A stretch of DNA of 64,000 bases from Actinomycetota bacterium (GCA_037140155.1 JBAXFA010000001.1:36724-100723); one strand, 5' to 3'; counted from the first letter of the stretch, positions 28,316-54,634 are shown. Translations and numbers: made by a program. The notes: generated from the sequence alone by a model not told the origin.

Positions 28316-29398
28316 ATGGCATCTGTTGTATTCGAAAACGCAACACGTATTTATCCAGGCACAACCAAACCTGCAGTCGACAAGTTAAACCTAACTGTTA
28401 AAGACGGTGAATTTTTAGTTCTTGTCGGTCCATCAGGTTGCGGTAAGTCAACATCGCTTCGTATGTTGGCAGGCCTTGAAGAGATCGACGAAGGTCGCAT
28501 TCTTATCGGTGACCGCGATGTAACAAACGTTGCTCCAAAAGATCGTGATATCGCAATGGTCTTCCAGTCATATGCGCTATACCCACATATGACTGTTGCA
28601 GAGAACATGGGATTTGCACTTAAGATCGCTGGAGTTGCTAAAGAAGAACGCGATAAGCGCGTTAATGAAGCAGCTAAATTGCTTGACCTTGAACCATATC
28701 TAGAGCGCAAGCCAAAGGCTCTTTCAGGTGGGCAACGTCAGCGCGTTGCAATGGGTCGCGCAATTGTTCGCGAACCACAGGTCTTCCTTATGGATGAGCC
28801 ACTATCAAACCTTGATGCGAAGTTGCGCGTTGCAACTCGTACCCAGATCGCAGCGCTACAGCGCCGCCTCGGAATTACAACTGTCTACGTAACACACGAC
28901 CAAGTAGAAGCTATGACTATGGGCGATCGCGTAGCAGTTCTAAAAGATGGTCTACTTCAGCAAGTAGATACACCTCGCAATCTTTACGATTCACCAGCAA
29001 ATGCATTCGTTGCCGGCTTTATCGGATCTCCTGCCATGAACCTTCTCTCTGCTCCTGTTAGCGGTGGCAAGGCGATGCTTGGTGATCTAGCGATCGATGT
29101 TCCAGCATCTGCCGGATCATCAGTCACAGTCGGTATCCGTCCAGAAGGATTCGCACCTGCTTCAAAGGGCTTTAACGTCCTTGTTGAAGTAGTTGAAGAG
29201 CTCGGTGCCGATGCATTCGTATATGGCAAGCCAGCAGATTCCTCAGTGAAGTTTGCTAACTCTGGCGATGAAGGCGCACAAGTAATTGTTCGTTGGGATC
29301 CAAAGAACCCACCTAAGCCAGGTGACACAATTTCTGTGACAGCTAACGCAAGTGCAGTGCACCTCTTTAGTTCATCAACTGGAGAACGTGTTAAGTAA
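28316..29398 (+). CDS. msiK: sugar ABC transporter ATP-binding protein (MsiK/UgpC/MalK type)
   Basis: Walker [10 protein letters not shown], signature LSGGQRQR, Walker B FLMDEPLS, and a C-terminal MalK-like regulatory domain. Confidence 0.9.
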
Positions 29399-29410
29399 TT
29401 TGAAGTAAAT

Positions 29411-29445
29411 AAAACCCCCGTCACTTATGTGGCGGGGGTTTTATA
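29411..29445. terminator. bidirectional rho-independent terminator between msiK and the enolase-like gene
   Basis: AAAACCCCCGTCAC (29411-29424) / TTAT loop / GTGGCGGGGGTTTT (29429-29442). 14-bp stem with one mismatch, flanked by an A-run and a T-run. Confidence 0.85.
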
Positions 29446-29446
29446 T

Positions 29447-30706
29447 TTAAAAAGGTTTAGAAAACTCTGTCTCTTCGGTTGCTTCTAATTCGAGTAAACG
29501 ATTCCACTTTGCAGTTCGCTCTGATCCATGGGTAGAGCCAACCTTTATCTGTCCGGCGCGCCAGCCCGTTGCTAGATCTGCCAGCCAAGAATCCTCAGTC
29601 TCACCGCTGCGCGCTGATACAACCGTTGCGAATTTATTGGCATGGGCGTTTGCCAACACTCGCTGAGTAGAAGTAACTAAGCCATTTTGATTGGCTTTGA
29701 TCAAAATGGCATTGGCGCTCTTCTCAGCAATGCCACGTTCTAGGCGATGCAAGTTTGTTGTAAATAGATCATCGCCAAGAATTTGTAAATTTGCTGGAGC
29801 CTGCGCATTGAATGCGCTCCAGGCCTGCCAGTCATCTTCGGCAAAGGGATCTTCAATTGAAGAAATTGGATAGGTATTTACTAAATTGAGCATCTCTTCC
29901 ACAAATTGATCTGAAGAATAAGTGGCGCCAGAAGTAGTTAGCGCATACTTATTATCGATAAAGAATTGTGTTGATGCGATATCGAGGGCAAGTGAGACCT
30001 TGTCAGATAGGCCAAGTAGTTCAATTTGAGCAAGAACAAATTCGCAGGCATCGTCAGTTGAAGCAAATGAGAGGCCAAGCCCACCTTCATCTGCCACTAA
30101 GTGGGTTATGCCATGTGTTTTACCATCACTTGCCGCACGTTCGCGAATTGCAACAACCCAGGAAAGTGCCTCAGCAAAATTTGTAGCAGCATGGGGAATC
30201 ACCAATACATCTTGAATATCTAGGCTGCGATTGGCGTGTGCTCCCCCAGATAAAATATTAACCATCGGCATCGGTATCAATAACTTGCCTTCTGGTTGAA
30301 AATACCTGGCCAGCGATTTTCCTGAAGCGTGTGCCGCAGCTTTCGCAACTGCAAGTGAAGTTGCCAGCGTTGCATTAGCGCCGATTACTTGGTGGCCCGG
30401 TGTGGGATCAACTTCAACTAATAACCCATCGATTGCTGCCAGATTGAGACTGTGGCCCAATAATTTAGGTGCGATCTTGGTGTTTATATTTTCAATTGCT
30501 TGATAGACAGATTTGCCTGCGAAGAATTCTTCTGATTTTTCGGTGCCGGCATCACGCAATTCATGTGCTTCATGTGCACCCGTAGAAGCCCCCGATGGCA
30601 CCCGCGCAGTGTGGATAGAACCATCGCTAAGAGTCAGCGTTACCGCAACTGTGGGGCGCCCGCGTGAATCTAGAACCTGATATCCCAGGACGCGTTTTAT
30701 ATTCAC
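29447..30706 (-). CDS. divergent enolase-family protein (paralogue-like)
   Basis: The enolase signatures PSGASTG, ADEGG, ALDIAS, SIEDPF, LGDDLF, LIKANQ, RSGETED and GQIKVGS are present. However, SHRSGETED is SARSGETED and DIQEFMI is DIQDVLV. The GTG start forms a GTGA overlap with the kinase stop. Confidence 0.8.
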   Translation of the reverse strand: MNIKRVLGYQVLDSRGRPTVAVTLTLSDGSIHTARVPSGASTGAHEAHELRDAGTEKSEEFFAGKSVYQAIENINTKIAPKLLGHSLNLAAIDGLLVEVDPTPGHQVIGANATLATSLAVAKAAAHASGKSLARYFQPEGKLLIPMPMVNILSGGAHANRSLDIQDVLVIPHAATNFAEALSWVVAIRERAASDGKTHGITHLVADEGGLGLSFASTDDACEFVLAQIELLGLSDKVSLALDIASTQFFIDNKYALTTSGATYSSDQFVEEMLNLVNTYPISSIEDPFAEDDWQAWSAFNAQAPANLQILGDDLFTTNLHRLERGIAEKSANAILIKANQNGLVTSTQRVLANAHANKFATVVSARSGETEDSWLADLATGWRAGQIKVGSTHGSERTAKWNRLLELEATEETEFSKPF

Positions 30707-31677
30707 TTTGCGGCACTTTCCAAGAGCTGCGTAAGAGTCATATCTGAATCTAACAGCGCCGACTTAGTTAGCGCCACCAATCGTTCTTGAGCAGGTGAAT
30801 CCAAATAATTTACAGGTGATACTCCCTCGACTCGTGCCAGGGCTATCAAGGCAATGTGGTGTGGCAGGCTTGCGGCAACGTTTAACTGAGAATCTTGTTG
30901 ATAGTTGGCGAAGAACTGCTTTGCCGTTTCAACCAATAAATCCTTCTCATCTCCTTGCGAGGCACGAATAATCTTGCATAGTAAGTGCGCAAGTAAAAAT
31001 GCGAGATCAAAGACGGGATTTCCGATATGGGCGACTTCAAAATCAAGGACAATCGGGCGATGATCAGCGGTTGCCATAATATTTTTAGGTGAAAAATCGC
31101 CATGAACTAAAGTTCTCTTTACAGTGGTGATCTCATTTATGAGCCCAGCGATAACCGGCTCTAAGCCTTGATTTTTAGCTAATACCGCGCGATAGAAAGG
31201 CGCCACTCGCAACTGCTCGAAGAGTGAATCTTCCATAAACTTTGCCTTGATCTCATCTGATCCCGCAGCTGCGTTATGCCAAGCAGCCAATATCTTGCCA
31301 AGTCTGGCACCCATCTCAGGATGGATTCGACCTTCCAACATATCTATCTTCCAATTGGTGCAACTTCGTGGCAGACGAGACATCGTTAAGGTGAACTCAG
31401 CAGCATCACAATCAATAAGTTCGGGAACACTTTCTGGAGTTATTGAGTGATAAACCTGCATCGCATCGGCTTCCACGATTGCTCGGCGTTGATCGGCGAC
31501 CCATTTAGCTTTTGTCTTTAACTCAGGTAACGCTTGCTTAACTACGAGATCAACCTCTGCGTTCGAGACGGCTAAGACGACACAAGAAACGCCACCGGTG
31601 AGTGTTTCCACGGTGGCGTTGCCTGTTAATAGTCCGCGCTGTGAAAGGTAGGAAAGAACCGAACCTTCATCGAGCAC
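30703..31677 (-). CDS. APH-fold (aminoglycoside-phosphotransferase/MTR-kinase-like) small-molecule kinase
   Basis: 324 aa. Catalytic loop LVHGDFSPKNIM and metal-binding segment VLDFEVAHIGNPVFDLAF. GTG start. Confidence 0.75.
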   Translation of the reverse strand: MLDEGSVLSYLSQRGLLTGNATVETLTGGVSCVVLAVSNAEVDLVVKQALPELKTKAKWVADQRRAIVEADAMQVYHSITPESVPELIDCDAAEFTLTMSRLPRSCTNWKIDMLEGRIHPEMGARLGKILAAWHNAAAGSDEIKAKFMEDSLFEQLRVAPFYRAVLAKNQGLEPVIAGLINEITTVKRTLVHGDFSPKNIMATADHRPIVLDFEVAHIGNPVFDLAFLLAHLLCKIIRASQGDEKDLLVETAKQFFANYQQDSQLNVAASLPHHIALIALARVEGVSPVNYLDSPAQERLVALTKSALLDSDMTLTQLLESAAK

Positions 31678-31690
31678 GGGAGTTGAGTAC

Positions 31691-32584
31691 TTATCCCTTT
31701 AGCGAACCTGACAAGAGGCCACGCAAGAAGTAACGACCTAAGAATAGGTAGACCAGCAACGTTGGGATCGAAACGATCAGCGAAGCGGTCATGTTATTTC
31801 CGTAGTAAACCTGGTTGCCAGAGCCGGTGATGAAGTTAAGGGCGGTAGTTGCAACCGCTAACTTTGGAGAACCACCGGTTAGGAAGATCGCAAAGAGGAA
31901 GTCGTTCCAAGCAGATGTGAACTGCCAAATAAGAACAACTACGAAGCCAGGGATAGAAAGTGGCAAGAAGATAGTGCGGAAGATTCTTAACATTCCGGCG
32001 CCATCAACACGCGCTGCTTCGATTAGCTCATTTGGGATTGCTGCATAGTAGTTACGGAAGATCAAGGTACAGATCGGAATACCGTAGATAACGTGCGCGA
32101 ATACCAATACATAAATTGAGCCGCCGATACCTGCCCACTGATTGAACTTTGTAAGTGGAATCATGATCGCTTGGTAAGGGATAAACATTCCGAATAAGAA
32201 TGTAGTGAAGATAAAAGTTGATCCCTTAAAGCGCCACTTAGCAAAGACGAATCCATTGATCGAACCGATAATCGCTGAAATAACAGATGATTGCACCACA
32301 AAGAACAAGGTGCGAAGCATCGGTACTTTTAACTGTTCCCAAGTTGGGCCCCAGGCGCTGAAATCTAACTTCTTCGGAGGCAAGAAAGCAGCTGATTGAG
32401 ATACACCAGTAATTCCCTTAACAGAGTTAATTACCATGATGTAAATTGGCAGCGCTGCGATTACAAAGAGAATGCTCAGAGCGAAGTAACGGAAGATCAG
32501 CCAGAACTGGCCTTTGCCATCTAGCTTGCGCTTATTGCGAACATCAACCTTGCGGGTAACGCGGGATGCGATATCTGAACTCAT
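31691..32584 (-). CDS. carbohydrate ABC transporter permease (CUT1, MalG-like)
   Basis: 297 aa, six TM helices, and the EAA loop ELIEAARVDGAGMLRIFRTIFLP. Confidence 0.88.
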   Translation of the reverse strand: MSSDIASRVTRKVDVRNKRKLDGKGQFWLIFRYFALSILFVIAALPIYIMVINSVKGITGVSQSAAFLPPKKLDFSAWGPTWEQLKVPMLRTLFFVVQSSVISAIIGSINGFVFAKWRFKGSTFIFTTFLFGMFIPYQAIMIPLTKFNQWAGIGGSIYVLVFAHVIYGIPICTLIFRNYYAAIPNELIEAARVDGAGMLRIFRTIFLPLSIPGFVVVLIWQFTSAWNDFLFAIFLTGGSPKLAVATTALNFITGSGNQVYYGNNMTASLIVSIPTLLVYLFLGRYFLRGLLSGSLKG

Positions 32585-33504
32585 TTGTTCGCCTCCTCTG
32601 TCTTATTTACATAGATTAGATATGGGATTACCGCTACTGCGATCATCAGCAAGATCAAGACCGCGATCGCTGCGCCCTTGGCATAGTTCTGGAAGTCGAA
32701 GATAACTTGCCACATATAAATGGCGAGCACCTTGGTGACATAGCTCTTGCTGGCGATACCGAAGATTAAGTCGAAGACCTTCATCGATATATGGCCCAAG
32801 ATAATTAAGACCGTTAAAAATGTTGGAGATAGCTGCGGGAACAAGATATGGCGGTAGATCTTGTATTCACTTGAGCCGTCGACTCGAGCTGCTTCGCGTA
32901 GATCATCAGGGATTCCGCGGAAACCCGCTAAGAAGAGCGCCATTACATAGCCAGACATCTGCCAGATCGCCGGCAGCGCCATGGCAAACATGGTGCCCTT
33001 CTCTGATGAGTACCAGTCGTTCTGCAGGAAGCCAAGATGGGCCTTCATGAGCAACATGTTGAGACCAGTTGCATCTTTATCACGTGCTGAGTCCATCAGC
33101 CAGCGCCAAGATGTTCCCATTGCGATGAATGAGATCGCCATTGGATACAAATAGGTAGAGCGGAAGAAACCCTCGCCCTTAATTCCCTTTTCCAGCAGAA
33201 GCGACATAATCAAACCAGAGAGTAAACATCCGATGATGAATACGCCGGTAAATTTTAGAAGATTGCTGAGCGCATGAGTAAATTCTGGGTCTTGCCAGAG
33301 TTCGCGGTAATTGGTTAGTCCTACAAATTTAACATCTGTCGTATAAGAATTAGTGCGGTTCTGTAGTGATTCGCGCACGGTATAGCCGATCATTCCGTAT
33401 ACGAAGACCGCCATTGCAAAAATTGATGGGAGTACGAAAAAGAATCCGCCCCAAGGGCTATGGACTCGATTTTTCTTTACCTTCACTTGAGTCACGCCTC
33501 TCAA
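32581..33504 (-). CDS. carbohydrate ABC transporter permease (CUT1, MalF-like)
   Basis: EAA loop DLREAARVDGSSEYKIYRHILFP. The start is uncertain: TTG 33504 or GTG 33486. Confidence 0.88.
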   Translation of the reverse strand: MRGVTQVKVKKNRVHSPWGGFFFVLPSIFAMAVFVYGMIGYTVRESLQNRTNSYTTDVKFVGLTNYRELWQDPEFTHALSNLLKFTGVFIIGCLLSGLIMSLLLEKGIKGEGFFRSTYLYPMAISFIAMGTSWRWLMDSARDKDATGLNMLLMKAHLGFLQNDWYSSEKGTMFAMALPAIWQMSGYVMALFLAGFRGIPDDLREAARVDGSSEYKIYRHILFPQLSPTFLTVLIILGHISMKVFDLIFGIASKSYVTKVLAIYMWQVIFDFQNYAKGAAIAVLILLMIAVAVIPYLIYVNKTEEANK

Positions 33505-33554
33505 AATATTTCAAATCATCAAAAAACAAAATTATCAAATTCATTTGTACAAAG

Positions 33555-33596
33555 TCTAAGTTCTGGCGGAGCCTTGCGGCCCCGCCAGAACTTAGA
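33555..33596 (-). terminator. strong intercistronic stem-loop downstream of the SBP gene
   Basis: Perfect 15-bp stem, 33555-33569 (TCTAAGTTCTGGCGG) with 33582-33596 (CCGCCAGAACTTAGA), and a 12-nt loop. It sits 34 nt after the SBP stop. There is no immediately adjacent U-run. Confidence 0.6.
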
Positions 33597-33629
33597 ACTA
33601 ACTTACATTTCCTACTTAACGGTTAAAAA

Positions 33630-34904
33630 TTAGCCGTTTGAGTTAGCAGTGAAAGCAGCAACGAGAGCCTTAGCGAATCCCTTTGCATCCTTTGCACCAC
33701 CTGTGTAGAAGCGACCAACAGCAGCATCGTAAGCAGCCATTCCAGCGTTACCGTAGTTAACACCGTGAACAGTTGAACCGACGAGACGATCTGTCTTCCA
33801 CTCCTTCATTGCAGCCTGTAGGTAGCTGTCGTATAGCGCAGGGTTTGAATCCTTACGCACTGCGATAGAACCCTTCTTAGGGTTGAATGCATCTTGACCG
33901 GCTAGAGATCCGCAGACCTTCAACCAGGCGATACCTGCATCGCGGTTTACAGCGCCCTTAGGCAATGTGAATGAGTCAGAGAGCCACATGTAAACAGGTC
34001 CCTTATCAACGTTGTTTGGAGCAACAGCCCATGTGTAATCAGTACCTAGCTTTAGGCCTTCTGATTGCCACTGTGATGAAGCCCAGTCACCCATGATGAA
34101 GAAGCCGGCTTTGCCTGTTGTTACAAGCTTGCCTGCATCTGGCCAGTCAAGTGACTTGCTTGAGTTTCCGTAAGCAAGGATCTTTGAGAGGTATGTAATT
34201 GCCTTAGCAACTTCTGGACCATCCCACTTTGTCTTGCCATTCCATAGACCGTTGTACTTATCTGCGCCCATTGAGCCAAGAAGTACTACGTCGAATAGGT
34301 GAGCAATCGCCCAGTCGCCGTTACCAGCAAGTGCGATTCCATCAATTCCGGCCTTCTTGAACTTAGCCATTGCAGCAAGCATCTCATCGAGAGTCTTAGG
34401 AGCTGCTGTGATTCCAGCCTTCTTTGCTGCAGCTGGGTTCCACCATAGAACGTTTGCACGGTGGATGTTTACAGGAACGGAGTAAATCTTTCCGTTTGTT
34501 GTAAGTGTCTTGATTAAGTCAGCTGGGAAAATCTTGTCCCATCCTTCTGACTTGTAAAGGAATGAAAGGTCTTCAACCTGTCCAGCCTTTACATAAGATG
34601 ATAGTTCTGCGCCAGCATGTGCCTGGAATGTGTCAGGTGGATTGCCAGCTTGCATACGTGATACGAGAACACCCTTTGCGTTAACGCCAGCTGCACCTGC
34701 AACTGCTGCGTTAATGAATGGTGTCTTTGGATTTAAACGTGTGAACTCAGTTGTCATTCCTGCAAGACCTGCAGCTTCTCCGCCTGATGCCCACCAGGTG
34801 AAGATTTCGAGTTGCTTATCAGTTGCAGCAGATGATGCTGGAGCTGTTGTCACAACAAGTGCAAGTGCAGCGAAGACTGCTGCTACTTTGGACTTCTTTA
34901 GCAT
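33630..34904 (-). CDS. extracellular solute-binding protein family 1 (CUT1 sugar ABC transporter SBP)
   Basis: 424 aa with a signal peptide and the LEIFTWWASGGE start typical of family-1 SBPs. SD GAGAAAGG precedes the ATG. Confidence 0.85.
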   Translation of the reverse strand: MLKKSKVAAVFAALALVVTTAPASSAATDKQLEIFTWWASGGEAAGLAGMTTEFTRLNPKTPFINAAVAGAAGVNAKGVLVSRMQAGNPPDTFQAHAGAELSSYVKAGQVEDLSFLYKSEGWDKIFPADLIKTLTTNGKIYSVPVNIHRANVLWWNPAAAKKAGITAAPKTLDEMLAAMAKFKKAGIDGIALAGNGDWAIAHLFDVVLLGSMGADKYNGLWNGKTKWDGPEVAKAITYLSKILAYGNSSKSLDWPDAGKLVTTGKAGFFIMGDWASSQWQSEGLKLGTDYTWAVAPNNVDKGPVYMWLSDSFTLPKGAVNRDAGIAWLKVCGSLAGQDAFNPKKGSIAVRKDSNPALYDSYLQAAMKEWKTDRLVGSTVHGVNYGNAGMAAYDAAVGRFYTGGAKDAKGFAKALVAAFTANSNG

Positions 34905-34935
34905 GTAATGCCTTTCTCGATGTAGAGGGATTTCC

Positions 34936-34949
34936 TAACTACGTAGTTA
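34936..34949. promoter_or_regulatory. perfect 14-bp palindrome, candidate operator upstream of the SBP gene
   Basis: TAACTACGTAGTTA with a central CG, 32-45 nt upstream of the SBP ATG, in the 234-nt araA-SBP spacer. Confidence 0.4.
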
Positions 34950-35138
34950 TGCACCCCCCTGGAAATTTCAGGGACCAGGGTTTTACATGTGGCTATCCTC
35001 GTTCGGGCGCTGGGGCGCGTCAACCTACATAGCCCCTTTGACGATAACGATTAGGTTACGAAGCGCGCCCATAGCGGGCTATCCCAATTCTTGAGATCTC
35101 AGCCTAAATAGTTAGCTAAAGGCTGGTTAAAGATCGGC

Positions 35139-36650
35139 CTAGGTCAGGGAAGAGAGCTTGTAGAAGGCGCCATTCCACTTAATCTCTTTATGGAAATCCT
35201 CGCTGGTAGTTGAGGCGCTAATTCGCAGATGTTCGACCTGGGCGATATTTGCAAAGTCGACTAAAACTTCTGGGTCAAGAGCGGTGCTTAAAACTGTGTG
35301 GTGCGAACCGCCGGCATAGATCCAAGATTCTGCCGATGTAGCAAGTGATGGCGCAGGTTTCCAAACCGCACAAGCAACTGGCAACTTCTTTAACTCTTTA
35401 TCTGGATTAACTACTTCAACATCGTTAGAGACGATTCGGAAGCGATCACCAAGATCCATCAGACCAACGACTCGACCTTGTGCGGGTGTTGCATTGAAAA
35501 CTAAACGAACTGGATCTTCTTTTCCACCGATGCCAAGAGGATGGATTTCACACTTTGGTTTCTGGTTTGTAATCGTTGGACAAACTTCCAACATATGCGC
35601 ACCAAGAACCTTCGGTTCACCTGGTCCGAAGTGGTAGGTGTAATCCTCCATAAATGATGTTCCACCTGGCAGACCTTCCGTCATGCTCTTAATAATGCGC
35701 AGCAGTGCAGAAGTCTTCCAGTCGCCTTCGCCGCCAAAGCCATAACCCTTTGACATCATTCGCTGCACAGCAAGTCCTGGTAACTGCTTTAGCGCACCTA
35801 GATCCTCAAAGTTAGTTGTAAAGGCGCTGAAGTTTCCGGCGGTTAAGAAAGTTTCTAGTGCAATTTCAAGCGATGCCTGATAACGAAGTGATTCATGGCG
35901 GGCGCCACCCTTTTTAAGTTCGGCAGAGACTTCAAAGATCTTTTCATATTCGGCAACAAGAGCATCGATTGCGGCTGGCTGAACTGCAGCGACGGCATCT
36001 ACAAGTGCGTTTACACCGTAGGCCTCGATCGACATTCCGAGCGTGATTTGCGCGCTTGTCTTGTCGCCATCAGTTACTGCGACATAGCGCATATTGTCGC
36101 CGAAGCGAGCTAGCTTTAAATTCTGTGCCGTGTTCCAGCCAATTGCTGCGCGCATCCAATGTGCGATTCGAGTTGAGACGCTCTTTTCTGAGACGTGGCC
36201 AGCAACAACTTTACGTGGCAAATGTAGGCGCGCTTGCACATGGCCATGTTCGCGATCGCCATGGGCTGCTTGATTGAGATTCATAAAATCCATATCGATG
36301 CTTTCCCATGGAAGCTCAGAGTTAGCTTGGGTATTTAAATGCAGAATTGGAACTTGGAGCGCGTTAAGCCCACCAATCCACATCTTGGCCGGTGAAAAGG
36401 TATGCATCCAAGTTATTACACCGATGCAATTTGGGTTAGCTGATGCCTCGTGACAGAGCGCTTTTATATCTTCCGGTGTCGTCAATACTGGTTTCCAAGT
36501 GGCTTTAATCGGTAGATCACTTGCTGCATTCAGTGTTGCTACAACTTGCTTTGATTGTTCTGCAACTTGCGCCAAAATCTCTGGACCATAAAGCGGCTGG
36601 CTTCCGGTTAGGAACCAGATTTCTAGACCTTGCTCTTGGAGAGATTTCAC
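35139..36650 (-). CDS. araA: L-arabinose isomerase
   Basis: 503 aa. AraA motifs [24 protein letters not shown] and GGSHHTV. Confidence 0.92.
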
Positions 36651-49125: not shown

Positions 49126-49803
49126 TTAGCGGACAGTTACCGATTTAATCTCAATTGGCTGTACTGGAAAACCATCTCCTGCGTAATACGCCTTACTTGA
49201 TGTTTGATCGACTTTATACGCACCAACTTTTTCAATCCGCAACAACAATGGCAGGCCGGTTTTGATCTTGCCCCAGATGGTGTAACTGGCTGGAAGAGTT
49301 GTGTCTTTATAGACTAAAAAGAACTGACTGCCATTGGTATTTGGGCCAGAGTTAGCCATCGCAACGGTGCCTGCCGGATAAGTAAGGATGGTTTTCGTTG
49401 GAAGATTCTCATCTTTATATCCCTGCCAAGAACCTGGAGAACCGTTTCCTTGGGCAGATGGATCACCACATTGCAGAACGTAAAGCCCTTCAGTCGTTAA
49501 GCGATGACAGAAAGAGTTATCAAAGAATTTAGCGCGCGCAAGAGCTGCCATATTGGTAACCGTTTGCGGGGCAGCCGGGTCCAAGGCAATTGTGATCACA
49601 CCGCAATTGGTTGTGATCGTCATCGTGGTTGCTAACTTCTTATCGACTGAAGTTGGTTGTTTCACGGTGGCGGGTGCATGCGCTTTAGAGGTTGGCTTGG
49701 CGCAACCAGCAACTGTAGTTGGACGGTCGGCGGCAGATGCCTGAATAAAAGTTAAAGGTGTCACGGCGATTGCCAGGGCACAGAGCGCAGTAATCCTCTT
49801 CAT
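49126..49803 (-). CDS. secreted cyclophilin-type peptidyl-prolyl cis-trans isomerase
   Basis: FHRLTTEGLYVLQCGDP and GSQFFLVY motifs. Start trimmed to MKRITALCALAIAV (signal peptide), which has a GGAGTAGGA SD. Confidence 0.85.
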   Translation of the reverse strand: MKRITALCALAIAVTPLTFIQASAADRPTTVAGCAKPTSKAHAPATVKQPTSVDKKLATTMTITTNCGVITIALDPAAPQTVTNMAALARAKFFDNSFCHRLTTEGLYVLQCGDPSAQGNGSPGSWQGYKDENLPTKTILTYPAGTVAMANSGPNTNGSQFFLVYKDTTLPASYTIWGKIKTGLPLLLRIEKVGAYKVDQTSSKAYYAGDGFPVQPIEIKSVTVR

Positions 49804-49847
49804 AGTCGAGTTCCTACTCCCATTCAATCTCTTTGCGAGTGTTCATT

Positions 49848-51398
49848 TCATTCCCACTCGATTGTTCCAGGTGGTTTCGACGTCACATCCAACACAACTC
49901 GATTTACTTCGCGCACTTCATTGGTAATTCTAGTTGAGATTTTCTCTAAAGTTTCATATGGGATACGTGACCAATCAGCGGTCATCGCATCTTCGCTAGA
50001 TACAGGACGTAGAACTATTGGGTGGCCATATGTGCGGCCATCACCCTGCACGCCAACGCTACGAACATCGGCCAATAAGACAACTGGACATTGCCAGATC
50101 TGGCGATCAAGACCAGCGGCTTTTAACTCTTCGCGCGCAATCAAATCTGCATGGCGCAGTAAATCAAGACGATCTTTCGTTACTTCACCGATGATGCGAA
50201 TACCAAGGCCGGGACCTGGGAAAGGTTGGCGCCAAACAATTTCTTCAGGAAGTCCTAGTTCTAAACCAACTTGGCGTACTTCATCTTTAAAAAGCGTGCG
50301 CAGTGGTTCTACTAAAGTAAATTTCAGATCATCAGGCAAGCCACCAACATTGTGATGTGACTTGATATTGGCAGTACCGGTACCGCCACCTGATTCCACA
50401 ACATCTGGATACAAGGTGCCCTGCACTAAGAATTCAACGTCACCACCAGCTGCGATATCGCGCGCTGCCTTTTCAAAGGAGCGAATAAATTCACGGCCAA
50501 TGATTTTTCGTTTAGTTTCCGGATCTGTAACACCAGCAAGTGCGTTTAAGAATTGATCAACTGCATCAACCACAACTAGATCTATGCCGGTGGCTGCCAC
50601 AAAGTCACGTTGTACTTGCTCTGATTCACCGCTGCGCAAGAGGCCGTGATCGACGAAGACACAGGTGAGCTGTGAACCAACTGCGCGCTGAATGATCGTC
50701 GCCGCAACCGCTGAGTCGACTCCACCAGATAAACCACAGATCACGCGCTTGCTACCGATTAGCGCCTTGGCTTTAGCGATCTCATTTTCTGCGATATTTC
50801 CGGTGGTCCAATCTGGCTGGCAGCCTGCAATGTTAATTAACCAGTTCTTAAATATCGCTTGGCCATGTTCGGAATGTAGAACTTCTGGGTGAAATTGCAC
50901 ACCCGCAATTTTTCCTGATGCATCTTCAAATGCGGCAATTGGTGTATCAGCCGTTACTGCACAGATAGAAAAACCTGCTGGCGCTTGCGTTACAGCATCA
51001 CCATGTGACATCCAAACACTTTGCACTGCGGGAAGTAATGAGAAGATCTTCGAAGTTGATTCAGTTTTTATCTCAGTACGGCCGAATTCTGATTTACCGG
51101 TCTGACTTACAACACCACCCAGGGCTGCAGCCATTACTTGAAATCCGTAACAAATACCGAAGACTGGAATACCAAGTTTTAATATCTCGCCATCAAATTT
51201 TGGAGCATGATCTGCATAAACGCTAGATGGGCCACCCGATAAGACAATTGCTGCAGGGTTCTTGGCGGTGACTTCAGCTGCTGTGATATGTGATGGAACT
51301 ATTTCAGAATAAACGCTTGCTTCGCGCACGCGACGAGCGATCAGCTGCGCATATTGCGCACCGAAATCGACTACTAAAACACCGCTTTTAGAATTCAA
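49848..51398 (-). CDS. guaA: GMP synthase (glutamine-hydrolysing)
   Basis: GATase domain (GICYGFQ), the ATP-PPase SGGVDS motif and the C-terminal PPGTIEWE. Confidence 0.94.
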
Positions 51399-51402
51399 TC
51401 GT

Positions 51403-52512
51403 TTAAGCCCCGTGAATAATGACTTCTACGCGCTGGAAAGATTTCACATCTGAGTATCCAGATGTAGCCATAGCGCGGCGAAGTGCGCCGAATAAGTTCA
51501 TTGATCCATCTGAAGTATGTGATGGGCCGAGCAGAATTTCTTCGATTGACCCAACCGTGCCAACGTTTACGCGTTCTCCGCGTGGTAGCTCTTGGTGATG
51601 GGCTTCTGAACCCCAGTGCCAACCAAGTCCTGGCGCTTCAACTGCCTTAGCAAGAGGAGATCCCATCATGACCGCATCTGCGCCACACGCCAGCGCCTTA
51701 GCAATATCACCTGAGCGGCCAACTGAACCATCTGCAATAACGTGAACGTAACGTCCACCAGATTCATCTAAATATTCACGGCGCGCAGCGGCAACTTCAG
51801 CAACAGCAGATGCCATTGGAACTTCAATCCCTAAAACTTTACGAGTTGTGTGAGCTGCTCCCCCACCGAATCCAACCAAGACACCAGCAGCACCAGCGCG
51901 CATCAAGTGCAGGGCACCAGTTGATGTAGCGACTCCACCAACGATTACAGGTACATCTAGCTCGTAGATAAATTTCTTTAAGTTAAGCGCCGAATCATCA
52001 TTGCCAACATGTTCTGCTGAAACTGTTGTACCGCGAATTACGAAGATATCCACGCCGGCATCGATAACGGCCTTGTGTAATTCGGCAGTACGTTGTGGTG
52101 AAAGGGATGCAGCAACTGTTACACCGGCATCGCGAATAGTTTTGATACGTTCTTTAATTAGTTCGGGGCGAATAGGTGCGCTATAGATCTCTTGCATACG
52201 TCGAGTAGCGTGCTTATCTGGCATAGATGCGATTTCACCAAGTGGAATACGGGGATCGTCATATCGAGTCCACAGACCTTCTAGGTTTAAAACACCTAAC
52301 CCGCCGAGCTTGCCAATTGCGATTGCAGTATCTGGTGAGACAACAGAATCCATAGGAGCAGCCATCATTGGAATATCAAATTTATAAGCATCGATCTGCC
52401 AGGCAGTTGAAACATCTTCGGGGTTACGAGTTCGACGGCTTGGGACGATAGCGATGTCGTCGAAAGAGAAAGCTTGGCGGGCGCGTTTTCCTGGTGCGAT
52501 TTCGATATCCAT
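51403..52512 (-). CDS. GuaB3-type IMP-dehydrogenase-related protein
   Basis: 369 aa, IMPDH-barrel-like, without the catalytic GSICTT loop. Its position between guaB and guaA matches mycobacterial guaB3. Confidence 0.85.
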
Positions 52513-53683: not shown

Positions 53684-54559
53684 TTAGGCGCCGATTGCCT
53701 GCTTGATCTGCTCGCAAGCCAGCGTTAAATCGTCAGCAAATGGCATATCTGCGCATTGATCGCGGTCCCAGCCCGGGCCACCCAAGATAACGCGCGGTGA
53801 TGGACGCACTGCCGGGATATCACGGAAGAATTTAGGGTCACCATTTTTTGGTAACTGCGCCCAAAGAAATACCGCAGGCGGGGCGCTACGCGAAATCATG
53901 CTCGATAAAGCTGCAAGTGGAGTACGCGCGCCCAAGAAGTTACATTCAACTTTTTCTTCTGCAAGAGCAGCGTGCAAGGCATGTATTGCCAAGCTATGAA
54001 TCTCTTCGCCGACCGAGGCGATTAACACCGGGCGAGCATTTATTGGGCTCTTTAATTGCTTGGTTCGATCGCGGAGAATTCCAATGATTGTTTCAGAGAG
54101 CAGGTGTTCGACTTCGATACCAGTACCAGTTGCCGCCCAGGCATCGCCAACGATTACGAGAACTGGAACCATGACTTCTTGCCAGCTGTCGATAACTCCA
54201 TATTTTGCAATATCTTTACGCAATAACTCTTCCACAAAAGTTCGGTCTAGCGAGTTTGCAGCGCTAACGATAGCTAAAACAACATCCTCACGAATTTCGC
54301 AGTTCTGTAAAATCTTTTCTACTTTTACTTCACCTTTATGGGATAAAGCTTGCTCTGCTGCATCTGCGGGTGCGACTCCGGCTGAGATTAACCGTCGCAT
54401 TAAAGTTAACTTGGCGAGATCGCTCGGACAATATCTGCGATGTTCTCCAGCTTCGTGGCTAGAAGGCCCAAGACCATAGCGGCGAGCCCAGGTTCGCAGG
54501 GTGGCTGGGGCTACTCCGATTTGGCGCGCGACCGCCGCGACCGTGAATAGCTCTTCCAT
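53684..54559 (-). CDS. MerR-family transcriptional regulator with a C-terminal B12-binding-like domain
   Basis: N-terminal MerR HTH (FTVAAVARQIGVAPATLRTWARRYGL...HRRY). The C-terminal Rossmann-like segment VLIASVGEEIHSLAIHAL...FLGARTP...ILGGPGW resembles the CarH/LitR B12 domain. Start trimmed to MEELFTV; the track start is 54610. Confidence 0.65.
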   Translation of the reverse strand: MEELFTVAAVARQIGVAPATLRTWARRYGLGPSSHEAGEHRRYCPSDLAKLTLMRRLISAGVAPADAAEQALSHKGEVKVEKILQNCEIREDVVLAIVSAANSLDRTFVEELLRKDIAKYGVIDSWQEVMVPVLVIVGDAWAATGTGIEVEHLLSETIIGILRDRTKQLKSPINARPVLIASVGEEIHSLAIHALHAALAEEKVECNFLGARTPLAALSSMISRSAPPAVFLWAQLPKNGDPKFFRDIPAVRPSPRVILGGPGWDRDQCADMPFADDLTLACEQIKQAIGA

Positions 54560-54634
54560 GGGGTAATCGTGGCGGTATCTGAGAGATCCCACCACTTGAA
54601 ACACGCTCAACCCTCAGGATTTAAGTGACGAAAC

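Follow-up and report, generated by a model that had tools for sequence, protein, structure and literature searches.

Introduction

In canonical arabinose operons (araBAD or araB-araD-araA), the L-arabinose isomerase gene araA adjoins araB and araD. Routes that pair a glycerate 2-kinase with enolase, such as the lower part of the non-phosphorylative Entner-Doudoroff pathway, the serine cycle (HprA-GckA-Eno) and the gar/glx operons of E. coli, lead from a hydroxy acid through a 2-phospho acid to an enol phosphate. They use the housekeeping enolase, and the enolase subgroup proper is generally regarded as isofunctional. Glycerate kinases fall into three known classes, GarK/GlxK (PF02595), MOFRL and the P-loop GLYK (PMC2063504). 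In the Route III pathway for pentoses and 6-deoxyhexoses, FAH and SDR enzymes cleave 2-keto-3-deoxy sugar acids to pyruvate and a hydroxy acid; the published route ends at pyruvate plus glycolate or lactate, without a kinase or enolase step (Watanabe et al. 2019, PMC6336799). Here, we analyze a locus at positions 29447-36650 of a 64,000-nt stretch of DNA from an Actinomycetota bacterium (GCA_037140155.1; hereafter the window, whose numbering is used for coordinates), in which araA and a sugar ATP-binding cassette (ABC) importer are followed by the genes of a small-molecule kinase and of an enolase paralog that we call EnoL.

An earlier interpretation of this DNA, the sequence-only reading, had assigned the kinase and the enolase-like protein to AraA, provided that araB and araD were missing elsewhere in the genome as well. 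AraA would produce L-ribulose (or D-tagatose), the kinase would phosphorylate the ketose, and the enolase-like protein would process the ketose phosphate, replacing AraB and AraD. We instead propose, with about even confidence, that two separable units make up the locus. The first unit would consist of araA and a CUT1 ABC importer powered by the shared MsiK ATPase. The second would be a cassette of two genes, inserted after the last permease gene and ahead of the terminator, whose products phosphorylate and then dehydrate a 2,3-dihydroxy acid to phosphoenolpyruvate (PEP) or an analog of it.

Results and discussion

Distribution of the kinase-EnoL cassette

Open reading frame (ORF) calls combined with Pfam and NCBIfam scans give the minus-strand order araA, spacer, solute-binding protein (SBP) gene, permease 1, permease 2, kinase and enolase-family gene, exactly as the sequence-only reading had described it. 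The APH-fold kinase (324 aa, 30703..31677, minus strand; APH, PF01636) is the first gene of the cassette. It begins after a 13-nt gap from permease 2 and overlaps by 4 nt the gene of EnoL (419 aa, 29447..30706, minus strand; Enolase_N and Enolase_C). Judging from the 13-nt gap, the cassette and the importer genes probably share a transcript. On the basis of homologs, the window belongs to Candidatus Nanopelagicaceae, close to Planktophila (acI Actinobacteria), and relatives of the kinase are 74-96% identical in lake metagenomes and 84% identical in strain IMCC26103 (CP015604.1), which has the same locus type.

How tightly are the two genes coupled to each other and to araA? An exhaustive, profile-free search with the kinase (E<1e-30) returned a family of 512 clusters at 50% identity. 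A GTDB scan with one genome per species confirmed at least 597 of 600 candidate matches, of which the best 80 loci were kept; homologous loci are labelled L001 and so on, including L085, L086 and L087. Cassettes were called by ORF calling and blastp and then by tblastn, and 72 loci had enough downstream sequence. The enolase-like gene directly follows the kinase gene in 66 of these 72 informative species loci (92%). The cassette is found in six bacterial phyla and a haloarchaeon. Its actinomycetotal carriers include Microbacterium, Rhodococcus, Mycobacterium, Nocardia, Streptomyces, Acidimicrobiia and Gaiellales, and it also occurs in Atribacterota, Gemmataceae, Flammeovirga, a spirochaete, a Negativicutes metagenome-assembled genome (MAG) and the haloarchaeon Halopenitus. 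One kinase cluster representative, P0161 (745 aa), is a fusion of kinase and enolase. Other fusions in the kinase family (P0122, P0207, P0228 and P0252) involve FGase (N-formylglutamate amidohydrolase-like), PfkB, D-2-hydroxyacid dehydrogenase (2-Hacid_dh) and FAH domains.

araA lies within 9 kb of the kinase gene in only 3 of the 80 loci, all from Planktophila and all with kinases at least 78% identical to that of the window, and the window cassette proteins are 50-70% identical to copies in araA-free clusters that bear the same active-site signature. The order of araA and the ABC importer is conserved in L001, L005-L007 and L087, and the kinase and enolase-like genes adjoin this unit in the close relatives L001 and L005-L007, but not in L087. 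The L087 AraA is 86% identical to that of the window and lies in the same synteny from pcrA to trpS, and the gene order is peptidase S51, araA, SBP, permease 1, permease 2, a 308-aa orphan on the opposite strand and msiK, the gene of the shared ABC ATPase. Neither gene calls nor tblastn (E<=1e-3) revealed a kinase or enolase-like gene in L087. Because the co-conservation that the sequence-only reading had itself set as a check fails, the chain from AraA through the kinase to the enolase-like protein is refuted as a general explanation, and the two genes very probably constitute a separable cassette that is not the partner of AraA. The sequence-only reading was right that the pair is unusual: we found no description of an APH-kinase/enolase pair in the searchable literature, where the cassette appears to be undescribed.

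The 308-aa ORF of L087 (L087:14895-15821, minus strand) has no Pfam match and sits exactly in the slot of the cassette, which marks this slot as an indel hotspot. In a Thermoleophilia MAG (L077:10010-11219), the enolase-like gene after the kinase is split over three frames, reflecting either a pseudogene or an assembly error. The kinase representatives P0159 and P0213 carry N-terminal extensions without a Pfam match.

Active site of EnoL

EnoL scores 399.5 bits against the enolase model TIGR01060 (cut-off 300) and is 39-44% identical to the yeast, E. coli and C. jejuni enolases. These three enzymes served as references for the active-site comparison (C. jejuni sequence taken from the alignment; yeast numbering is used throughout), which covered 59 full-length kinase-linked paralogs. 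The Mg2+ ligands S39, D246, E295 and D320 are kept in the 59 paralogs, as are Q167, the base K345 and the acid E211. The phosphate binders H159, R374 and S375 are also kept, R374 and S375 in 58 of 59 sequences, and so is K396 of the QIK(T/V)G motif, again in 58 of 59; in each case one row is gapped. EnoL accordingly resembles enolase (EC 4.2.1.11) in its two-domain fold, both Mg2+ sites, the phosphate binders, Lys345, Glu211, Q167 and K396.

Unlike enolase, the kinase-linked paralogs are remodelled around the C3-hydroxyl side of the active site. Position 168, Glu in the three references, is Asp in all 59 paralogs, and position 373, His in the references, is Ala or Gly in 58 of them (Ala in the window). 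N155S, M170L, G209A and T397V are near-invariant (at least 90% of the 59) and clade-specific. All six clade-specific substitutions map at or beside residues of the C3-hydroxyl pocket, and Glu168 and His373 of yeast enolase lie on the C3-hydroxyl side of 2-phosphoglycerate (2-PG). Poyner and colleagues are said to have found in 1996 that the E168Q variant of yeast enolase loses about 10^4-10^5-fold activity. The label 'enolase-like' given by the sequence-only reading is thus apt, in that EnoL passes TIGR01060 yet carries Asp168 and Ala373. The paralogs are only 38-52% identical to one another, no closer than to true enolases; because they are as divergent mutually as from true enolases, the signature is kept by selection rather than by recent common descent. 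EnoL also departs from enolase in its genetic setting: its gene is coupled, and sometimes fused, to that of a dedicated kinase, and it is a second copy that is absent from the close relative L087.

The kinase

The kinase matches APH-type Pfam families only. Residues H192-G193-D194, N199, D212 and E214, which form the HGD...N and DxE motifs, are invariant or at least 90% conserved in 50 homologs. An AlphaFold2 (AF2) model (pLDDT 97) has MtnK structures as its best fold matches (TMq about 0.8, 18-20% identity) and also matches PsiK. The kinase therefore shares with MtnK and other APH-fold kinases (PsiK, NahK and homoserine kinase II) the fold, the HGD loop and the DxE-type metal motif, and like them it is stand-alone and soluble. 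Its relation to MtnK itself is distant. The kinase is about 75 residues shorter, scores 68.8 bits against TIGR01767 (cut-off 275) in two partial stretches, and aligns with PDB 2olc at E 6e-8 over about 100 residues. No annotated neighbour, be it in the window or in any of the 80 loci, is an MtnA or MtnB partner of methionine salvage, and the genomic context points to carboxylic acids, not ribose derivatives. The Pfam scan places the kinase outside PF02595, MOFRL and the P-loop GLYK. If it is a glycerate kinase, then it represents a new class.

Genomic neighbours of the cassette

Within 9 kb of the kinase gene in the 80 loci, the recurrent families are FAH (29), aldehyde dehydrogenase (ALDH, 15), IlvD/EDD (14), 2-Hacid_dh (14), MR_MLE (13) and SMP-30 lactonase (10). 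These are the families of oxidative non-phosphorylative sugar-acid routes, all of which handle 2-hydroxy or 2-keto carboxylic acids. A typical cluster in other Nanopelagicaceae comprises a lactonase, a U32-like protein, an SDR, the kinase, EnoL, IlvD/EDD, FAH and ALDH. In L009, the cluster has beside it a divergent operon with genes for SDRs, a PfkB kinase, a KDPG-type aldolase and orthologs of the window SBP and permeases. The acI paralogous clusters resemble Route III in combining lactonase, IlvD/EDD, SDR, FAH and ALDH, whereas the window itself lacks genes for all five.

In loci outside acI, no gene occurs more often within two positions of the kinase than 2-Hacid_dh (8/128 proteins). The Negativicutes locus runs URO-D-like, PucR, kinase, EnoL, a LarA-like 2-hydroxyacid racemase and an LctP lactate-type permease, and in L070 genes for a GlcD/GlcF-like 2-hydroxyacid oxidase adjoin the kinase. 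Where regulators are seen near the cassette, they are of the FCD-GntR, IclR and PucR types. The actinomycete neighbours (regulators, an MFS transporter, an acyl-CoA dehydrogenase and similar genes) give no coherent pathway.

Several neighbours are worth recording in their own right. The 'U32-like' protein (307 aa; L021:3262-4185 and orthologs) has a weak Peptidase_U32 match (36 bits) and is encoded in the same operon, upstream of SDR-kinase-EnoL, in 18 Nanopelagicaceae loci. A search for PDB sequence relatives of this protein and of the small SDR that precedes the cassette in acI clusters gave nothing useful. In the Planktophila MAGs L015 and L019, a paralogous cluster of U32-like, SDR, kinase, EnoL and IlvD/EDD genes lies beside cyclophilin, guaA and guaB3; the orthologous site of the window (49126-52512) has no such insertion. 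Genes of the uroporphyrinogen decarboxylase family (URO-D-like) recur beside the cassette in L073, L079 and L083, which come from Negativicutes, Acidimicrobiaceae and a spirochaete.

Proposed function of the cassette

What reaction could a kinase and a remodelled enolase carry out together? We propose that the APH-fold kinase phosphorylates the 2-hydroxyl (O2) of a 2,3-dihydroxy carboxylic acid, of which D-glycerate would be the simplest candidate, and that EnoL then eliminates the 3-hydroxyl, using Lys345 as the base, Glu211 as the acid and the two-Mg2+ site, to yield PEP or another enol phosphate analogous to it. In other genomes, the acid would be supplied by oxidative non-phosphorylative sugar catabolism through FAH-type hydrolysis of 2,4-diketo-3-deoxy acids, by an aldehyde dehydrogenase that oxidizes glyceraldehyde, or by a D-2-hydroxyacid dehydrogenase that reduces a 2-keto acid. 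A sequence from D-glycerate through 2-PG to PEP fits because the FAH, ALDH and 2-Hacid_dh partners can each deliver glycerate. Such a module would share with the known glycerate 2-kinase and enolase routes both the order of chemical steps and the association with D-2-hydroxyacid dehydrogenase, aldehyde dehydrogenase and sugar-acid dehydratases. It would differ from them in that the window kinase belongs to none of the three glycerate kinase classes (PMC2063504) and in that the known pathways employ the housekeeping enolase, not a remodelled dedicated paralog. The general scheme is the best overall explanation that we can offer, at about even confidence; the assignment of D-glycerate in particular is tentative and falls somewhat below that level.

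Several observations weigh against this scheme. If the kinase made plain D-2-phosphoglycerate, the housekeeping enolase would be enough, and a dedicated paralog in which E168 is invariably changed argues for another substrate. In a crude neighbour-joining tree computed with the six signature columns masked and with three true enolases only, the paralogs are not recovered as one clade. The nearest solved relatives of the kinase phosphorylate sugars or amines, not acids. The contexts outside acI are heterogeneous, and none of the oxidative-pathway genes that accompany other cassettes is present in the window.

The first of these points leads to a bolder version of the same idea, in which EnoL has diverged in function within the enolase subgroup proper. 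Together with the dedicated kinase, to which it is sometimes fused and which would represent a new class of hydroxy-acid kinase, it would form a widespread module that phosphorylates and then eliminates, acting on L-glycerate, a C4-C6 aldonate or a 3-substituted lactate, not on D-2-phosphoglycerate, and delivering the acid to central metabolism in the form of an enol phosphate. We regard this version as a doubtful but serious candidate.

A rival explanation, which we consider unlikely, makes the substrate a larger 2,3-dihydroxy sugar acid, namely a C4-C6 aldonate (for example, erythronate, threonate, arabinonate or galactonate). The cassette would then act as an ATP-primed dehydratase that converts a 2-phospho-aldonate into a phosphoenol-2-keto-3-deoxy acid, whose phosphate could be returned to ADP. 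The substitutions E168D, H373A, N155S and T397V shorten or remove polar side chains at the C3-hydroxyl pocket, as expected for an extra substituent at C3. The cassette also lies within aldonate-processing clusters (lactonase, IlvD/EDD, MR_MLE or UxuA), and the importer is of the monosaccharide type. However, most such clusters already encode a conventional aldonate dehydratase, and the contexts with LctP and LarA or with 2-Hacid_dh better fit a small monocarboxylate. Moreover, we know of no phosphoenol-2-keto-3-deoxy acid intermediate, which also counts against the proposal.

EnoL might alternatively be a plain second 2-PG enolase isozyme, paired with an unrelated sugar kinase (for example, an anomeric or 6-kinase) that acts on an imported hexose, so that the pairing reflects co-regulation of lower glycolysis. 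EnoL passes the NCBIfam enolase cut-off (399 versus 300) and keeps K345, E211, K396 and all metal ligands, and APH-fold sugar kinases are well known, with NahK and MtnK among the fold matches. A redundant isozyme would nevertheless not be expected to show 92% gene-order conservation, fusions and a six-residue signature across phyla, and in many loci the kinase occurs without a sugar importer. The Mycobacterium, Streptomyces and Rhodococcus carriers are known to have a canonical enolase elsewhere, which further argues against an isozyme. We judge this explanation to be quite improbable.

The conversion of the AraA ketose by the kinase and the enolase-like protein fares worse still and is, in our judgment, very unlikely. 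The adjacency of the genes in the window, L001 and L005-L007 speaks for it, as do the lack of araB and araD among the size-matched window ORFs scanned and the lack, in the ten closest AraB clusters, of a member from complete genomes with this locus type. Against it stand the rarity of araA near the cassette, the araA and ABC genes of L087 that do without the cassette, the related cassettes with the same signature in araA-free clusters, and the canonical araBDA operons of the same family. The chemistry is also unfavourable. The catalytic residues retained in EnoL serve the established enolase mechanism, which requires the alpha-proton of a carboxylate, and a ketose phosphate has none.

We give scarcely any credence to an enlarged C3 pocket that takes up a different leaving group and not a longer chain, in which case 3-sulfolactate, for example, from a sulfoquinovose-type oxidative pathway would be phosphorylated and desulfonated to PEP and sulfite: acI clusters do share the sulfo-Entner-Doudoroff families (SDR dehydrogenase, SMP-30 lactonase, IlvD/EDD dehydratase and ALDH) and contacts to the C3 substituent are lost through both invariant substitutions, but no sulfite exporter, sulfite dehydrogenase or GH31 sulfoquinovosidase occurs among the annotated neighbours, the ComA reaction (PEP plus sulfite) is known in the reverse direction, and the idea is pure speculation.

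The cassette has consequences for annotation. Pipelines will name EnoL 'enolase', as it passes the curated cut-off, and the kinase 'aminoglycoside phosphotransferase' or 'methylthioribose kinase', and metabolic reconstructions therefore probably miscount both genes. The acI/Nanopelagicales are the most abundant freshwater bacterioplankton, and a wrong call for the cassette affects their reconstructed carbon use. If EnoL has a new substrate, it would be one of the rare members of the enolase family proper to have diverged in function, and the cassette would reveal a new way of turning hydroxy acids into PEP-level intermediates. If the cassette only converts glycerate to PEP, the kinase would define a fourth, non-homologous class of glycerate kinase, and the conversion would explain how streamlined freshwater bacteria use glycerate-type exudates.

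AraA and the absence of araB and araD from the locus

The araA gene (35139..36650, minus strand) encodes a 503-aa protein with the three AraA Pfam domains that scores 768 bits against the NF002795 equivalog (cut-off 622) over residues 7-500 and 646 bits against the solved AraA 9vf5. Its GEGDW, MEDY, AHMLE and HHT motifs are intact and align with those of the solved AraAs 9vf5 and 4r1o, in agreement with the sequence-only reading; we assume for these motifs the Glu/Glu/His/His catalytic and Mn2+-binding roles of E. coli AraA.

The window araA is a true ortholog and, as in canonical operons, has a sugar ABC importer as its neighbour; unlike in those operons, araB and araD do not adjoin it. No FGGY or class-II aldolase (Aldolase_II) domain was found among the window ORFs of at least 150 aa whose size fits AraB or AraD, nor in the genes flanking araA, which bears out the earlier statement that both partners are missing from the locus. 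Two neighbours of 233 and 516 aa at 49126-51398 were considered as araD and araB and rejected; they are cyclophilin and GuaA. In a homolog search with a Planktophila AraB as the query, no AraB attributable to genomes with this locus type appeared among the best 120 matches (at least 65% identity), and the ten closest Planktophila-type AraB clusters have no member from complete genomes carrying this locus type. We found no description of araB or araD in Planktophila in the searchable literature.

Canonical araB-araD-araA operons do occur in other Nanopelagicaceae, namely L085 (a complete 1.32-Mb genome) and L086, where genes for FGGY (556-559 aa) and Aldolase_II (219-221 aa) proteins lie directly upstream of araA. 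The canonical operons of this family are also accompanied by LacI regulators, ABC importers and GH51 or GH127 arabinofuranosidases. In L086, another Planktophila, a classical glycerate kinase of PF02595 (L086:11515-12648, plus strand) directly follows araB-araD-araA, an association of arabinose genes with glycerate phosphorylation that parallels the window and the D-glycerate candidate.

The importer

The transporter consists of a family-1 SBP (424 aa, 33630..34904; SBP_bac_1) and two BPD_transp_1 permeases, all encoded on the minus strand, and is of the CUT1 type with a separately encoded MalK-like ATPase. Permease 1 (32581..33504) has 307 aa from a TTG start (orthologs have 301 aa), and its gene overlaps by 4 nt that of permease 2 (297 aa, 31691..32584). 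The best solved relative of the SBP is the glucose/galactose-binding protein of Thermus thermophilus (2b3b/2b3f; 310 bits, E 1.5e-91), followed by Pseudomonas-type glucose binders. The best NCBIfam matches of permeases 1 and 2 are the archaeal GlcT and GlcU, respectively, both below cut-off. Since the SBP is closest to glucose/galactose binders, the cargo is probably a monosaccharide of the glucose, galactose or L-arabinose type, and the adjoining araA makes L-arabinose or D-galactose the candidate cargo.

The importer thus resembles the Thermus ttGBP and Pseudomonas GtsABC-type systems that share MsiK, with its close SBP, two CUT1 permeases and a separately encoded ATPase whose gene has an msiK RNA leader. 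It differs in its predicted ligand, L-arabinose or galactose and not glucose, as suggested by the link to araA. In L009, L010, L012 and L070, the clusters that contain the cassette also encode orthologs of the SBP and permeases (69-85% identity). The araA/importer/msiK part is ordinary, and the locus as a whole looks like a conventional arabinose or galactose uptake system that has gained an accessory cassette.

Terminator, spacer and surrounding genes

The 48-nt gap between the operon and the convergent msiK gene is occupied by a bidirectional intrinsic terminator (29409..29444) common to both. Its hairpin, AAAACCCCCGUCAC-UUAU-GUGGCGGGGGUUUU, has an A-run on one flank and a U-run on the other, and folds at -28.2 kcal/mol on the plus strand and -22.6 kcal/mol on the minus strand (z -7.7 and -6.6). 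The hairpin is strong and upholds the bidirectional terminator of the sequence-only reading. A simple promoter/terminator scan missed this real terminator; the counts of that scan were at or below chance.

As also noted earlier, msiK (28316..29398, plus strand) converges on the operon. It encodes a 360-aa msiK/ugpC-type shared ABC ATPase with ABC_tran and OB_MalK domains that scores 464 bits against NF008653 (cut-off 432). Directly upstream lies the msiK RNA motif RF01747 (28254..28312, plus strand), which scores 60.4 bits (gathering score 33, E 2.6e-12), and the shared ATPase therefore carries the usual actinobacterial leader element.

The spacer between araA and the SBP gene measures 234 nt (34905..35138, minus strand), the length given by the sequence-only reading. 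It contains an operator-like block, GTAACCTAATCGTTATCG, at 35042-35059 with TAAC-N6-GTTA inside, a -35-like box (GTTGAC), GGTTGACG, at 35018-35025, and a hairpin CCCTGG..CCAGGG at 34957-34980. The blocks (GTAACCnAATCGTTA, the GTTGAC box and the hairpin) are kept across six aligned orthologous spacers, in which the surrounding sequence and the length vary, and are candidate promoter and operator elements. The overall fold of the spacer is not significant (z -1.95), and the Rfam scan detected no riboswitch in it, the msiK motif being the sole match. The importer and the cassette probably have their own regulated promoter, and read-through from araA into the importer genes may also occur. No regulator gene cognate to the operator-like block occurs within the locus, in agreement with the sequence-only reading, which had noted the lack of a LacI, ROK or GntR regulator. 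The locus is bordered directly by the genes of CNNM and TrpS at one end and by those of peptidase S51, Icd and Mdh at the other.

Farther out in these flanks of housekeeping genes, a Bmp-type binding protein accompanies CNNM and TrpS, and PurH, SucCD, PcrA, GuaA/B and GroEL lie on the Icd side. Upstream of guaB, a MerR-family protein with a B12-binding domain (53684-54610, minus strand) is CarH-like at 95 bits, below the equivalog cut-off, and may be a light- or B12-responsive regulator in this photoheterotrophic lineage.

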